Shown: positions 26,269 to 30,291 of the stretch, one piece after another
Numbering within the stretch: the stretch's first letter is position 1
Layout of the letters: every line of letters starts with the position of its first letter
NCBI GenBank assembly: GCA_032161105.1
Contig: JAVHTD010000017.1
Length of the DNA: 64,000 bases
Source of the DNA: Candidatus Thermosaccharophagus tengchongensis
GTDB taxonomy: Bacteria; Armatimonadota; Fervidibacteria; Fervidibacterales; Thermosaccharophagaceae
Reading direction: 5' to 3' (one strand)
The notes under the pieces: model-generated
The model's database searches: none
What the model was told of the DNA's origin: nothing
The model's input: the letters and a program-made list of their open reading frames with translations, nothing else
Position numbers and translations under genes: made by a program

Positions 26269-26874
26269 TCACTCCCACTTGAATCGCTCAATCAATTCCT
26301 CAAGCGAGCTCAATGTCGTAGGCTTTGCCTGTGAATGTTTTTGCGGGTCGCGCTTCACTACCGTGAGCAGGTTAAACTCGCTGTCGGCATCTTCCAGCTG
26401 GCGGAATAACGAGCTTTCCCCTTCCGAGTCCCAGTAGTCAAGCAGCTTCATCAGGACGACGAGCCTCGGGTTTTCCCTATCAACTCGCTTAGCCATGTGA
26501 ATCTCAACGACATCCCTGTCATCAAATCCGAGCGCTTCGCAAATTGCATCTTGAACGAGCTTGACCCCGTTGTCCAAGTCTCGCTCATATAGTGACCGCA
26601 GGAAAAATTCGTAGCGCATTGAGATGAGGCGCTTATGCGCTCCCTTACCTCGGTATGCAGCTTTTGCGATGTTGGCATTGCCATCTGGTTCACACTCTCC
26701 AACCATGCTGAGCGAAGTGAGGTTCAGCTTGCCGGCTGCTTTAAGCCTTTGAAGGGCTTTGAGCAGCGTGCGCCTGTAAACCTGTGCATCATCGCTCAGC
26801 GTCATCAATCCACCCCTGAGGCTATATTGGTGGTTAACGCTTGGCGGAAGCGGCAGGATGAACTTTAGCTGCAT
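26269..26874 (-). CDS. RusA-family structure-specific endonuclease with insertion and acidic C-terminal extension
   Basis: ATG at 26874 with a GGGGTGAG SD. FILPLPPSVNHQY parallels E. coli RusA ITLPWPPSNNRYY. ERDLDNGVKLVQDAICEALGFDDRDVV parallels [28 protein letters not shown], the catalytic Asp cluster plus Lys. Confidence 0.7.
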   Translation of the reverse strand: MQLKFILPLPPSVNHQYSLRGGLMTLSDDAQVYRRTLLKALQRLKAAGKLNLTSLSMVGECEPDGNANIAKAAYRGKGAHKRLISMRYEFFLRSLYERDLDNGVKLVQDAICEALGFDDRDVVEIHMAKRVDRENPRLVVLMKLLDYWDSEGESSLFRQLEDADSEFNLLTVVKRDPQKHSQAKPTTLSSLEELIERFKWE

Positions 26875-26904
26875 GCCCAAACTCACCCCGACGGCTCACC
26901 GTCA

Positions 26905-28530
26905 TCATGCTTGTCCAAACAGTTTTCTCATCGTCTCATGCGGGAGGCGTCTGCCAATGACTTGAGCACCATTTGTTCGGTGTGCTTGGAAGAAGTATTG
27001 CGTCTCACCGGCTGTGTTTATCCCGTCAAGAGGCTTAACTCGGACGATGAGCGGATATTGCTTTGTCACATTGCCGATGACCAGCACATGATGCCTCCTC
27101 AAGCGCTTGACGAAAGAGCTCATGGTTTCCAAGTCCGTAAGGGCGCACTTTGCGAGATGCCTCACATCGTCATCAAACGGGGTGTTCATTATGAACAGGT
27201 TGTCCGCTTGGCGGAGCACAGTCTCATCAAGGCTGCCAATCATGTTCGTGATGAAGAAACAAGTTATTCCGATGTGCCTTGAGCGTGTCACTATTGTGCC
27301 GATTGTGTTCCTCGTGACATACAGATGTGCCTCCTCAAAGAAGACGAACGGGAACCTGTTTGTGCCGCGTGAGATTTCCCTCTCGCAAATCTCCTTGATG
27401 ATCTCAATGACAGCCTGCACGAACCCAAACCTTGCAAGCGGCGTCAAGTCTGATATGTCAATGATGAGTGCACCGCCATAGCGTATCTTGTTATATTCGT
27501 GCTTTAGGTCAACGGCTTCATCCGGAGCCCTCGCAAACACCCTTGTGTTCCTGACGGCTTCAAGCCTGCTCCTTATGGCTGTGTTGACTACCTCACTCTC
27601 AGCGAGTTCGTTGTGCTCAGCCATCTGTATCAGGTGCTCAATCGTCAGGAATGGCGGTTTGCGCCCGTGCTGCTCCATGATTCGCATCTCCTCAAACAGT
27701 CCGAATAACCTGTTTTCAAGATGCATGGCTGATACCTCTGGCAAGCCGAACTTTGTTAGCATGGTTATGAGTGGCTGTATGCCGAACTGCCTTAGCCCGA
27801 GCTTAAAGTTGACGCCAACCTTAAGGTGCACTATCCCGGGTTGGATGACCCTGCCAGTTATTGGGTCAACCTCAAGCTTCGGCAGGTGGATATATTCTCG
27901 GTTGATGTCAAAGACTATGCATGGGGCGCCCAGTTGGATTAGCTCAAGCAGGATCACCTTCGCAAGGTGCGACTTACCACACCCCTTCACGCCGGTGATG
28001 ATGTTGATCTTCTCAAGGTGCCTCCCATCAATCTTGAATGGCTCACCCCTTAGGGTGTATCCGAGTTCAATCGGATTGCCGAGCAGCTCAACGCAGTTCT
28101 TGAAAAGCTCCGAATCCGGCGTCACCGTGACATTGACATCCCTGTGCGGTATCCATCCATCCCACTGATCCCATTCGCCGTTTGCAAGCTTCCTTATCTT
28201 GCAGATTGCCACCTTCAAGTTGCGCTCCCTTGATAGCGTTTGTTCCGAAATGGCTTCTATAAGTTCCGTTGGCAATTCACCGTCGTGTGTGGCTTCTCTT
28301 GTCATTGAACCGTCTCCGTTGCCCCTGCCACCATTGAGAGCCAATTGGAGTAAGTCGCGCACAAGCGATGGATAGTTGAGTGACCTGAAGGAAATGACCT
28401 GCACTATTAACCCGTTACCGCTGTCGCGTTCTCTGACACACAGCGTCTCGCCGACATGCAGGTCTTCCTCAGATGGGTCAAAGATGAGTTCCATTACATC
28501 CCCCTTTATCTGGTAAACTTCAATTCCCAT
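26905..28530 (-). CDS. HerA/FtsK-clade (DUF87-like) P-loop ATPase
   Basis: 541 aa. The N-terminal beta-rich segment (GETLCVRERDSGNGLIVQVISF) resembles a HerA HAS-barrel. Walker A is ITGVKGCGKSH and Walker B is FPFVFFEEAHLY, with a downstream FFITNMIGSLDETVLRQADNLFIM block. GAGGTGG SD before the ATG at 28530. Confidence 0.7.
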   Translation of the reverse strand: MGIEVYQIKGDVMELIFDPSEEDLHVGETLCVRERDSGNGLIVQVISFRSLNYPSLVRDLLQLALNGGRGNGDGSMTREATHDGELPTELIEAISEQTLSRERNLKVAICKIRKLANGEWDQWDGWIPHRDVNVTVTPDSELFKNCVELLGNPIELGYTLRGEPFKIDGRHLEKINIITGVKGCGKSHLAKVILLELIQLGAPCIVFDINREYIHLPKLEVDPITGRVIQPGIVHLKVGVNFKLGLRQFGIQPLITMLTKFGLPEVSAMHLENRLFGLFEEMRIMEQHGRKPPFLTIEHLIQMAEHNELAESEVVNTAIRSRLEAVRNTRVFARAPDEAVDLKHEYNKIRYGGALIIDISDLTPLARFGFVQAVIEIIKEICEREISRGTNRFPFVFFEEAHLYVTRNTIGTIVTRSRHIGITCFFITNMIGSLDETVLRQADNLFIMNTPFDDDVRHLAKCALTDLETMSSFVKRLRRHHVLVIGNVTKQYPLIVRVKPLDGINTAGETQYFFQAHRTNGAQVIGRRLPHETMRKLFGQA

Positions 28531-28612
28531 TTAGTCCACCTCGCCCACACGCATCGGCTTAACGCCGCTGTGTCAAGTTGAAGACCCCTTACCCGCCAAC
28601 ACTGCTATACGC

Positions 28613-29041: not shown

Positions 29042-29054
29042 CAGGATCACTGCC

Positions 29055-30239
29055 TCACTTTCGGATGTGGTATCCGGCGGACTGCAGTATCTCCTCAACT
29101 TCCGAAGTCTTCATTCGCCATATCTCAGCCAACCTCGTTAGCGATATAAATCCCCTGCTGTATGCTTCAAGCGCGAGCACGACGAGAGTTGGCGGGACTT
29201 TTGGTGGCTCCAGAACTCTGTCCTCCTCCGCTTCACTTCCATACAAGCTCCTTTCAAGCTTTTCAACGCTGACCCTCTTAAGCTGTTCATATTGGTCCTT
29301 TGTGATACAACCGAGCTCCCACAATCTTATGAGCATTGCTGAGTAGCTCACGCCGAAATAGCGTTTGAGGTAGATCACTTCTTCAGCACGCAGCGCATGT
29401 CCAATCCCGAATTGCTCTTCCACGATGCGCCTTATGCCCTCTTCGGGCATGAGAAAATGCGTTGCAAACAAGTCGGCAAACCTCTCCACATCCTTACGGT
29501 GCATGCGTGTGAGGTAGCCCTCTTCGCTCTTGTACGGGAGGTAGTCCTCTTCGCTCTTGCACGGGTAGTAGCCCCTTGACCTATCCCTCAGGTAATGGCA
29601 ATACTCATGTGCCGCTGTGAAAGTTTGCTTCCCCTTTGTCCGGTTGGTGTTTATGAGGACGAAAGCACCCTTCTCCGGGTCATATGCGAATATTCCATCA
29701 AGCTGCGAGTTCGGAAGCGAAATCCTTATGACATGCACTCCCTGATTCTCAAGCAGCAAAAAGATGTCCCGTATGGGTCCGTCGCCGAGTTGTAGTCTTC
29801 CCCTTTCCTCCATAGCGAGCCGTTTAGCCTGTATTCGCATCTCACGCCAACTCGTTGGCACCGGTTTCCTTTGCTCCGTCATCTCGTGCTTCTTTATGCC
29901 GAGCTTCTCCTCAAGCCACGCATAGTCCTCACAGTATTTCACAAACTCCTCAATCACCTTCTTATCGGCTTGTGTGATCTCGGGGGCGCGCGGGAGCATT
30001 TTGAATGTGTCGGGCTCGGCTTCTTCTTTGCCTTCAAGCAGCCAACGAATGTCAACCTTGTAGATGGCAGCCAATCTCTTTAACAGCTTCAACTTGGGAA
30101 TCCTTCTGCCGCTTTCAATCATTGAGATGTATTCCCTTGTGCAACCAACCATTTCCGCAACTTGTGATTGCGATAGCTTTTCCTTCTCGCGGGCTTGCCT
30201 GAGCTTCTCCCCAACCTGACTTGTAACTTCCTGTTCCAT
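29055..30239 (-). CDS. XRE-family HTH fused to ImmA/IrrE (COG2856, M78) zinc metallopeptidase
   Basis: N-terminal HTH: LRQAREKEKLSQSQVAEMVGCTREYISMIESGRRIPKLKLLKRLAAIY. Central HExxH (TAAHEYCHYL) and a downstream ERFADLFATHFLMPEE motif. About 120 aa of helical C-terminal region. Confidence 0.85.
   Translation of the reverse strand: MEQEVTSQVGEKLRQAREKEKLSQSQVAEMVGCTREYISMIESGRRIPKLKLLKRLAAIYKVDIRWLLEGKEEAEPDTFKMLPRAPEITQADKKVIEEFVKYCEDYAWLEEKLGIKKHEMTEQRKPVPTSWREMRIQAKRLAMEERGRLQLGDGPIRDIFLLLENQGVHVIRISLPNSQLDGIFAYDPEKGAFVLINTNRTKGKQTFTAAHEYCHYLRDRSRGYYPCKSEEDYLPYKSEEGYLTRMHRKDVERFADLFATHFLMPEEGIRRIVEEQFGIGHALRAEEVIYLKRYFGVSYSAMLIRLWELGCITKDQYEQLKRVSVEKLERSLYGSEAEEDRVLEPPKVPPTLVVLALEAYSRGFISLTRLAEIWRMKTSEVEEILQSAGYHIRK
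29511..29564. repeat. Tandem 27-bp in-frame duplication inside the XRE-ImmA gene
   Basis: GAGGTAGCCCTCTTCGCTCTTGTACGG is followed directly by GAGGTAGTCCTCTTCGCTCTTGCACGG, 25 of 27 identical. They encode the PCKSEEDYL / PYKSEEGYL repeat just after the HExxH motif. Confidence 0.9.
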
Positions 30240-30262
30240 TTCTCACCACCTCTTCACTTCAA

Positions 30263-30291
30263 ATAGTAACATATTGTGACGGGAATGTAAA
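30263..30291 (-). promoter_or_regulatory. Putative promoter plus operator-like inverted repeat of the XRE-ImmA cassette
   Basis: On the minus strand: TTTACA, a 17-nt spacer, then TACTAT, followed by a GAGGTGGTGA SD and the ATG at 30239. The imperfect inverted repeat GTCACAATATGTTAC (30266-30280) overlaps the spacer and -10 box. Confidence 0.4.

Follow-up and report, generated by a model that had tools for sequence, protein, structure and literature searches.

The 64,000-nucleotide (nt) stretch analysed here (the window) belongs to Candidatus Thermosaccharophagus tengchongensis (contig JAVHTD010000017.1, assembly GCA_032161105.1). On its minus strand it carries a cassette of four genes, A to D, which encode a fusion of an XRE helix-turn-helix (HTH) domain with an M78 metallopeptidase, a small helical protein, a HerA/FtsK-clade ATPase and a RusA-family nuclease. 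Comparison of the cassette with its relatives leads us to regard it as what is probably a damage-inducible translocase-nuclease repair module of the HerA family, ancient, vertically inherited and cellular. This reading is carried by the conservation of the ATPase-nuclease pair across phyla, by a C-terminal tail that two unrelated nucleases have in common, by the exchange of damage-type regulators in front of the ATPase, and by the presence of the pair within lexA-led repair operons of other bacteria. A broader proposal, which we put forward tentatively, is that of an unrecognised ancient recombination-repair machine, in which a HerA-family motor works with interchangeable nucleases through one shared docking tail, is wired to LexA, WYL or XRE-M78 regulators, and supplies branch processing or resolution in Fervidibacterota, Chloroflexota and Tectomicrobia-like bacteria.

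The ATPase-nuclease pair and its conservation

Gene A (29055-30239; 394 amino acids (aa)), gene B (28613-29041; 142 aa from an ATG, with a 161-aa TTG version likewise open), gene C (26905-28530; 541 aa) and gene D (26269-26874; 201 aa from an ATG or 205 aa from a GTG) are co-directional open reading frames (ORFs) on the minus strand, separated by gaps of 13, 82 and 30 nt. This layout had been predicted from the sequence and is confirmed here, together with a Shine-Dalgarno element of the GAGG/GGTG type ahead of all four starts. The 142-, 541- and 201-aa products also appear among the public gene calls for a metagenome contig of identical sequence, which comes from Jinze hot-spring sediment and is assigned to Candidatus Fervidibacterota.

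Gene C had been placed in the HerA/FtsK clade on the basis of its motifs, and profile searches agree: Pfam DUF87 (PF01935) matched residues 155-363 with 38.7 bits (cut-off, 23.2). The Walker A motif GVKGCGKSH (residues 180-188; nt 27967-27993) and the Walker B motif FVFFEEAH (residues 395-402; nt 27325-27348) are both intact, and both are invariant in an alignment of 40 homologues. The N-terminus is beta-rich, with strands predicted at residues 4-136 in a low-confidence AlphaFold2 (AF2) model, and gave no match to the Pfam HAS-barrel. By sequence, the closest solved structure is Sulfolobus HerA (4d2i, 7.3e-5). A Foldseek search with the AF2 model, whose predicted local distance difference test (pLDDT) score is 60, returned HerA chains for all of the top 50 matches, from repair as well as anti-phage complexes, at template modelling scores of 0.3-0.4. 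The NCBIfam HerA equivalogs scored 14-25 bits against cut-offs of 800-850. Judging from its sequence, gene C is a separate paralogue and not the canonical repair HerA; its product is presumably a ring-shaped translocase on double-stranded DNA.

In several independent metagenome-assembled genomes (MAGs) of Caldilineaceae the ATPase is encoded by two ORFs that overlap in different frames, one for an N-terminal portion of some 110-130 aa and one for the ATPase portion of some 420-430 aa (L040:2629-4202, L041:1214-2781, L042:3544-5102, L044:5293-6887 and L047:7920-9580, where L numbers denote the loci that we compared). Its recurrence speaks for a true division of the gene or a programmed frameshift, and against an assembly error.

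The assignment of gene D to the RusA family also stands, with a score of 31.0 bits for Pfam RusA (PF05866) against a cut-off of 22.8 and a match to the RusA-like PHROG 34 at 2e-10. In an alignment to E. coli RusA (1q8r), gene D keeps the catalytic acidic residues and the lysine (DLDN, K and DD): its RDLDNGVK (nt 26560-26583, minus strand) aligns with RDLDNLQK, and its DD (nt 26509-26526, minus strand) with the DD of the E. coli protein. We take these catalytic residues to be D70, D72, K76 and D91 in E. coli numbering. An insert and a tail make the product of gene D some 80 aa longer than its E. coli counterpart.

Three related MAGs (L001-L003) have the whole A-B-C-D cassette, flanked there too by clpP and the TIM-barrel gene, with ATPases 85-90% identical. 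Further away, identity to the window ATPase falls to 64-66% in the genus Fervidibacter, to 62-64% in Tectomicrobia-like bacteria and to 53-57% in Chloroflexota; distant relatives are 30-44% identical. At 50% clustering the ATPase family comprises 321 representatives at E<=1e-3 and 92 at E<=1e-30, among which P0011, which belongs to the high-identity group, is by far the top-scoring one.

We took a census of the neighbours by building profiles from them and scanning these over 138 loci, of which 130 are non-redundant and 120 have sequence downstream of the ATPase. RusA follows the ATPase in 45 of the 120, and a PD-(D/E)XK nuclease does so in 51, which are from Chloroflexota; the remaining 24 have neither. 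The PD-(D/E)XK partner is about 290 aa long and shows a Pfam PDDEXK_1 match and weak Cas4 matches. RusA is therefore a conserved neighbour of this ATPase across phyla, in Fervidibacterota and in Tectomicrobia-like bacteria. Searches of the literature library (HerA or DUF87 with RusA, LexA or WYL) yielded no description of the pairing, in keeping with the original prediction that it was undescribed.

In a neighbour-joining (NJ) tree of the ATPase, partner type tracks clades and taxonomy. RusA-linked ATPases form a single clade of Tectomicrobia-like bacteria and Fervidibacterota, in which the window clade is sister to the genus Fervidibacter, and the PD-(D/E)XK-linked ATPases are those of Chloroflexota. 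A scan of viral contigs with the ATPase found no relatives, and its inheritance, as far as sequences can tell, looks vertical. In the genus Fervidibacter, a conserved protein of about 360 aa encoded upstream of the ATPase was considered as a partner and set aside as unrelated: its N-terminus resembles a signal peptide, it belongs to no Pfam family, and its profile is not similar to that of any module protein.

The position directly after the ATPase is occupied in some genomes by restriction-modification (RM) cassettes (BsaWI or XcyI with a methylase) and toxin-antitoxin (TA) cassettes (MNT-HepT, HEPN-MNT and PIN), at L004:3310-4169, L013:4000-6510 and L054:9869-14489. In L004 and L054 these insertions separate the ATPase from its RusA gene, and the position looks like an insertion hot-spot in two distant lineages.

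A C-terminal tail common to two nuclease folds

The tail of gene D, LSSLEELIERFKWE (26272..26313, minus strand), follows a basic stretch and is a candidate docking peptide. RusA tails of the family consist of a basic run followed by LSSLEELIERFKWE in the window or RSLEELAARHRWD in Tectomicrobia-like bacteria; the window peptide can also be written as ending in ...KPTTLSSLEELIERFKWE. In the alignment, E. coli RusA has no such tail. The unrelated PD-(D/E)XK partners of Chloroflexota terminate in KKKxGxRSLxDLAxELxWE. The motif common to both folds is a basic run plus SLxELxxxxxWE. A regular expression for this tail ([ST][LM]x[DE][LM]x(4-5)W near the C-terminus) matched 31 of 47 RusA partners, those missed being mostly truncated ORFs or near-variants, and 46 of 49 PD-(D/E)XK partners. 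Among the remaining ORFs of these loci that reach 100 aa, 4425 in all, none matched. For one terminal peptide to be carried by two nuclease folds, and only beside this ATPase, a shared docking site is the best explanation, and the ATPase is the obvious candidate for that site. The ATPase-nuclease partnership that had been proposed for the window is reinforced by this tail.

Damage-type regulators precede the ATPase

Within 4.5 kb upstream of the ATPase, the 130 non-redundant loci encode WYL regulators (27), LexA (21) and XRE/M78 proteins (6). In Chloroflexota the unit consists of a WYL regulator (HTH_11-WYL-WCX), the ATPase and the PD-(D/E)XK nuclease; LexA itself is found upstream in other loci of that phylum (L037, L047 and L116). 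Split, divergent XRE and M78 genes precede the ATPase-PD-(D/E)XK pair in L041 and L042 (Caldilineaceae), and an M78-TPR gene does so in L044. LexA, WYL (PafBC/DriD) and the XRE protein DdrO with IrrE/PprI represent the three classes known among regulators of the DNA-damage response in bacteria (PMC12288472). From gene order and domain content, the position before the ATPase thus appears to be occupied by LexA, WYL or XRE/M78 according to lineage, and the fused protein A of the window fits this series.

Of 22 WYL-ATPase-nuclease loci, 13 have a perfect (A/G)GAAC-N4-GTTCT palindrome, an SOS-type box, where the WYL gene begins (background, 0.03 per kb; about 0.3 expected). Such sites lie at L020:5046, L021:5049, L025:4032, L030:6938, L046:6911, L117:3990, L119:4324, L125:231 and elsewhere. 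The same box is presumably the LexA site of Dehalococcoides. The GAAC-N4-GTTC type of box is the LexA site of B. subtilis and S. aureus (PMC9578287).

The pair lies within repair operons of other bacteria

In Tectomicrobia-like genomes and many soil metagenome contigs, the gene order is lexA-radA-recA-mraZ-like-ATPase-rusA-nurA-HAS-barrel-herA-mre11-rad50; more than 20 loci show lexA-radA-recA-mraZ-like-ATPase-rusA-nurA-herA-mre11. Among the RusA loci, NurA was found in 23 of the 29 with enough downstream sequence and RecA in 22 of the 31 with enough upstream sequence. Canonical NurA-HerA are genes additional to the ATPase homologue, as seen beside it in L051, L053 and L056. The gaps between recA and the mraZ-like gene measure 4-30 nt in several Tectomicrobia-like loci, where lexA is preceded by a strongly conserved promoter bearing a CTGC-N8-GCAG palindrome; the short gaps and the conserved promoter suggest a single lexA-led transcription unit. 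Because the ATPase-RusA pair lies inside a lexA-recA repair operon in other phyla, a role in DNA-damage repair is likelier than an anti-phage one.

The conservation of the ATPase was compared with that of its neighbours. Mean pairwise identity over nine loci is 86% for RecA, 82% for the ATPase, 81% for LexA, 80% for RadA, 79% for NurA and 69% for RusA, and between the window and L002 it is 86% for ClpP, 85% for the ATPase and 51% for the TIM-barrel gene. With identities near those of RecA, RadA and ClpP, the ATPase evolves like a core repair protein.

The lexA promoter region itself is nearly invariant and holds two palindromes, TTGACAcCTGC-N8-GCAGTATTACTCATATGAGCAG (L051, L053, L056, L089-L111, L054 and L081); on its sequence it is a candidate SOS box of this uncultured Tectomicrobia-like lineage. 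The large cluster also includes dnaA-minCDE before lexA (L051:1135-17905, L053, L056 and L089-L111). A MraZ-family paralogue within an apparent SOS operon, away from any cell-division cluster, was unexpected.

The XRE-M78 protein and the small helical protein

Gene A had been described as a fusion of an XRE HTH to an ImmA/IrrE peptidase, which Pfam supports with two matches above cut-off on the minus strand: HTH_3 at residues 13-67 (nt 30039-30203; 4.7e-17, 62.2 bits) and Peptidase_M78 at residues 164-306 (nt 29322-29750; 2.1e-17, 63.5 bits). The peptidase domain contains HEYCH, an intact HExxH, at residues 211-215 (nt 29595-29609) and the motif ERFADLFATHFLMPEE at residues 252-267. A UPF0175-like C-terminus at residues 354-391 is a weak, sub-threshold Pfam match. 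Among other profile collections, gene A matched RmrA (1.8e-36) and, more weakly, capP and capH in PADLOC, PHROG 2439 (2e-46), and the spr1629 antitoxin family of NCBIfam (1.9e-25, far under that family's cut-off).

The nearest relatives of gene A outside the window clade are XRE-M78 fusions, 35-42% identical, that precede DUF3368 PIN-like genes (L140:5001-6669 and L142:5001-6624) in RM- and TA-rich surroundings. Its UPF0175-like C-terminus and the DUF3368 neighbours of these relatives suggest a family of three-domain repressor/antitoxins paired with PIN-like toxins. The start of gene A is inconsistent among records, the product being 315 aa on one public contig identical to the window and 394 aa elsewhere (L057:8529-9476 and L058:7555-8739, respectively); the shorter version, P0275 in the public data, is 98% identical and spans 63% of the query.

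A consensus scan found a single minus-strand promoter-like site upstream of the cassette, TTTACA-17 nt-TG-TACTAT (30263..30291), a pattern match that would serve gene A. The conserved box GTCACAATATGTTAC (GTYACAnTnnGTTAC; 30266..30280, minus strand) overlaps the promoter spacer and the -10 region. L001-L003 all have it in the corresponding position, L002 and L003 twice, and from its sequence and position we consider it a candidate operator that protein A may bind. At the B-C junction, the gap of about 38-88 nt across four genomes holds no conserved promoter and no predicted terminator.

The product of gene B (28613-29041, minus strand) is a lineage-restricted, all-helical protein of 142 aa with two similar helical halves. 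Its resemblance to phage Mu GemA (DUF1018, PF06252) is weak and was not confirmed: Pfam GemA was silent for B and for its halves at E<=10, when Mu GemA as a control scored 3.8e-31, and hhalign gave a partial and weak match of 51 columns to GemA residues 3-53 (probability 70%, pairwise E 4e-5). No Pfam or PADLOC family matched B, including RmrT, DUF3368 and other toxin models. Relatives of B amount to 3 clusters among 5.8 billion proteins, and B occurs solely together with A, in the window clade. The AF2 model of B is helical with a pLDDT of 60, too poor for fine inference, and a Foldseek search against viral structures returned nothing at E<0.29. The place of B is taken in Tectomicrobia-like loci by a MraZ-like protein, to which B proved unrelated (hhalign probability, 0.1%).

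Proposed mechanism and alternative explanations

The mechanism that we infer extends to physical docking, damage induction in this organism, the substrate and the roles of A and B. The HerA/FtsK-clade ATPase would track or branch-migrate on damaged or recombining DNA, driven by ATP, and the nuclease would be recruited to it by its C-terminal peptide (basic run plus SLxELxxxxxWE). RusA would then cut branched intermediates or junctions, its cleavage being coupled to ATPase movement. The module may act as a late step, beside the genes for resection (NurA-HerA and Mre11-Rad50), strand exchange (RecA) and branch migration (RadA) that accompany it in other phyla. In the window clade, protein A would repress its own promoter through the GTYACAnTnnGTTAC box until, upon a damage signal, its peptidase domain inactivated it in the manner of DdrO/IrrE or ImmR/ImmA; protein B would have an accessory role particular to this lineage.

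A number of observations weigh against a repair module of this kind. The Chloroflexota partner looks like an end-processing nuclease of the Cas4/RecB type and not like a junction resolvase, so a junction-resolving role common to the family is not established, and exchangeable nucleases on one conserved ATPase are typical of defence systems as well. One subclade of Fervidibacter (L008-L017, L071-L080 and others), which includes the complete genome of Ca. F. sacchari PD1, has neither RusA nor PD-(D/E)XK within 8 kb of a highly conserved ATPase. The nesting of this subclade inside RusA-linked lineages points to secondary loss or relocation of the nuclease, and the ATPase may act alone there. The RM and TA insertions beside the ATPase in L004, L013 and L054 are an island-like feature, as are the varying genomic contexts of the Chloroflexota three-gene unit. 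WYL and XRE/M78 regulators govern anti-phage systems too, so that the regulators alone cannot separate repair from defence, and the GAAC-N4-GTTC box could serve as an operator for the WYL protein itself, or LexA and WYL could both control the operon. The candidate operator of protein A is a unique site, with no further copy, and hence no sign of a regulon, in the 64-kb window, and at least one match arose in 17 of 100 shuffles. Lastly, since relatives of gene A precede DUF3368 PIN-like toxin genes and A matches RmrA, A-B could be a separate insertion of the toxin-antitoxin type.

An anti-phage or anti-plasmid defence system, in which a HerA-like translocase would deliver RusA or a Cas4-like nuclease onto foreign branched DNA and a switch (XRE-M78, WYL or LexA) would be released by infection damage, accommodates the exchangeable nuclease, the variable context in Chloroflexota and the adjoining RM and TA cassettes. 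It is also in line with HerA being the motor of SIR2-HerA and DUF4297-HerA, both among the fold matches of C, with weak and partial PADLOC matches of the ATPase to mad8 (1.1e-12) and HerA (2.9e-9), with the strong match of A to RmrA, and with defence loci often having WYL and XRE/M78 regulators; in PADLOC, models of CRISPR-associated WYL proteins match the one of Chloroflexota. Against it stand the location of the pair between recA and nurA in a lexA-led operon at more than 20 loci, the RecA/RadA-like conservation, the vertical descent, the stable synteny and the lack of a viral-contig copy. Moreover, no PADLOC model matched better than about 1e-12 to 1e-15, though identity within the family is 54-66%. 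Run on the window proteins and on their Chloroflexota and Tectomicrobia-like versions, PADLOC gave only weak generic matches and no specific system. A defence module was one of the two options in the original prediction: its conserved ATPase-nuclease unit is real and apparently undescribed, but repair is the better supported function, given the lexA-radA-recA...nurA-herA-mre11-rad50 embedding, the RadA/LexA-like rate and the SOS-type box. We hence consider a defence role unlikely.

A different explanation takes the cassette as a composite in which a RosmerTA-like or spr1629-like toxin-antitoxin or regulator-effector pair (A-B) was inserted upstream of an older ATPase-RusA pair, without A regulating C-D in any meaningful way. 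The matches of A to RmrA and to the spr1629 antitoxin family, its weak UPF0175 antitoxin-like C-terminus and the outside relatives followed by a DUF3368 PIN-like toxin gene of about B's size, in RM/TA-rich surroundings, argue for such an insertion, as does the occurrence of A and B together in the window clade only; TA cassettes did insert beside the ATPase in sister lineages. However, B matches no RmrT, DUF3368 or other toxin model, and the B-C gap lacks a conserved promoter or predicted terminator. The slot directly before the ATPase holds a damage-type regulator elsewhere (LexA, WYL or split XRE and M78), so that the position itself is probably regulatory, and a composite origin seems to us quite unlikely.

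The original prediction had given equal standing to a domesticated fragment of a phage early region, with a repressor or antirepressor, a GemA-like gene, a replication or packaging ATPase and RusA; we reject it, a decayed prophage being highly improbable. RusA and XRE/ImmA genes are common in phages, as their PHROG matches reflect, the ATPase has a weak match to a terminase-annotated PHROG (2.8e-9) and B has its weak GemA-like stretch. Nevertheless, the ATPase has no relatives on viral contigs, no structural, integrase or lysis genes and no tRNA accompany the cassette, and the base composition is host-like. The flanks are identical across genera in a conserved chromosomal synteny, inheritance looks vertical, and the pair resides within lexA-recA operons of another phylum.

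Relation to known systems

The repair module that we favour is, in kind, a HerA-type motor with a nuclease; what is new is the RusA partner, the tail shared across nuclease folds and the alternative damage regulators. HerA-type motors are known from end resection in archaea and Deinococcus, together with NurA, and lately from anti-phage systems. A close counterpart is HerA-NurA with Mre11-Rad50 (archaea and Deinococcus-Thermus), which likewise sets a HerA-clade ATPase beside a nuclease in the company of repair genes, and whose HerA proteins (4d2i, 7wrw, 7f6d and 9x1l) are the best sequence or fold matches of gene C. It differs in having NurA as partner, where the module has RusA or a Cas4-like enzyme bearing the special C-terminal tail, and gene C reaches 25 bits against an equivalog cut-off of 800.

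RuvAB-RuvC and the RusA of lambdoid prophages offer a second parallel. RusA is a RuvC-independent resolvase of these prophages. A hexameric motor with a Holliday-junction endonuclease would be the common feature, as read here from sequence alone and from the conserved RusA catalytic residues, whereas the motor here is of the FtsK/HerA type and not the AAA+ RuvB, and the RusA is longer, chromosomal and, in its family, linked to lexA rather than prophage-borne.

SIR2-HerA, DUF4297-HerA (Nezha-type) and mad8 of the methylation-associated defence system (MADS) also combine a HerA-family ATPase with a co-encoded effector, and fold matches include these complexes. The matches are weak (1e-9 to 1e-15), though, and those systems do not resemble the module in conservation, vertical inheritance or linkage to lexA-recA; Pfam and PADLOC found no SIR2, DUF4297 or other mad genes with the cassette.

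For gene A, the parallels are DdrO/IrrE (PprI) of Deinococcus, ImmR/ImmA of ICEBs1 and CapH/CapP of the cyclic oligonucleotide-based anti-phage signalling system (CBASS), which pair an XRE repressor with an M78 metallopeptidase whose HExxH is intact in A. In A, by contrast, a single 394-aa protein contains both XRE and M78 and has a UPF0175-like tail, and cleavage, its trigger and the operator are putative. RosmerTA (RmrT/RmrA) and spr1629-type systems share the XRE-M78 architecture of A; unlike in RosmerTA, neither B, C nor D matches RmrT in PADLOC, and what follows downstream is an ATPase gene and a nuclease gene.

As a third family of HerA proteins, these ATPases would bring a new component to recombinational repair in bacteria of several large and poorly studied phyla. 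The tail common to two unrelated nucleases provides a concrete and testable interaction hypothesis, and the exchange of LexA, WYL and XRE-M78 in front of one module is a natural experiment on the rewiring of damage responses. Should the defence explanation be true, the module would be a new HerA-based immune system with a junction resolvase as effector.

Genomic surroundings

The flanks of the cassette are, as had been proposed, a xylose-isomerase-like TIM-barrel gene and clpP, with further housekeeping genes beyond; the wider neighbours include galK, lpxD, tyrS, bamA, tamB-like genes and glycoside hydrolases. The expected absence of tRNA genes at the borders was confirmed (none between positions 15 and 42 kb in the window), as was that of phage structural, integrase and lysis genes in the public gene calls on the identical contig. 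No anomaly of composition marks the cassette. Profile scans of the whole window found no genes for RecA, LexA, RadA, NurA, a second HerA, Mre11, WYL or MraZ-like proteins.

The TIM-barrel gene (25441-26247, plus strand) belongs to Pfam AP_endonuc_2, a family that also holds endonuclease IV, and is convergent with RusA in the window clade. A similar gene is divergent from the ATPase in some Fervidibacter loci (L004:573-1430, L006:6977-7870 and L039:6949-7803). This adjacency may be a coincidence in a sugar-degrading organism; the window and Fervidibacter groups of the gene did not cluster together.

Elsewhere in the window, the GC content drops to 0.47-0.50 at 54000-60000, against about 0.52 in the rest. 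Two large minus-strand ORFs with no Pfam family, at 54125-55597 (490 aa) and 55721-58930 (1069 aa), adjoin GH42-like and GH95 glycosidase genes.

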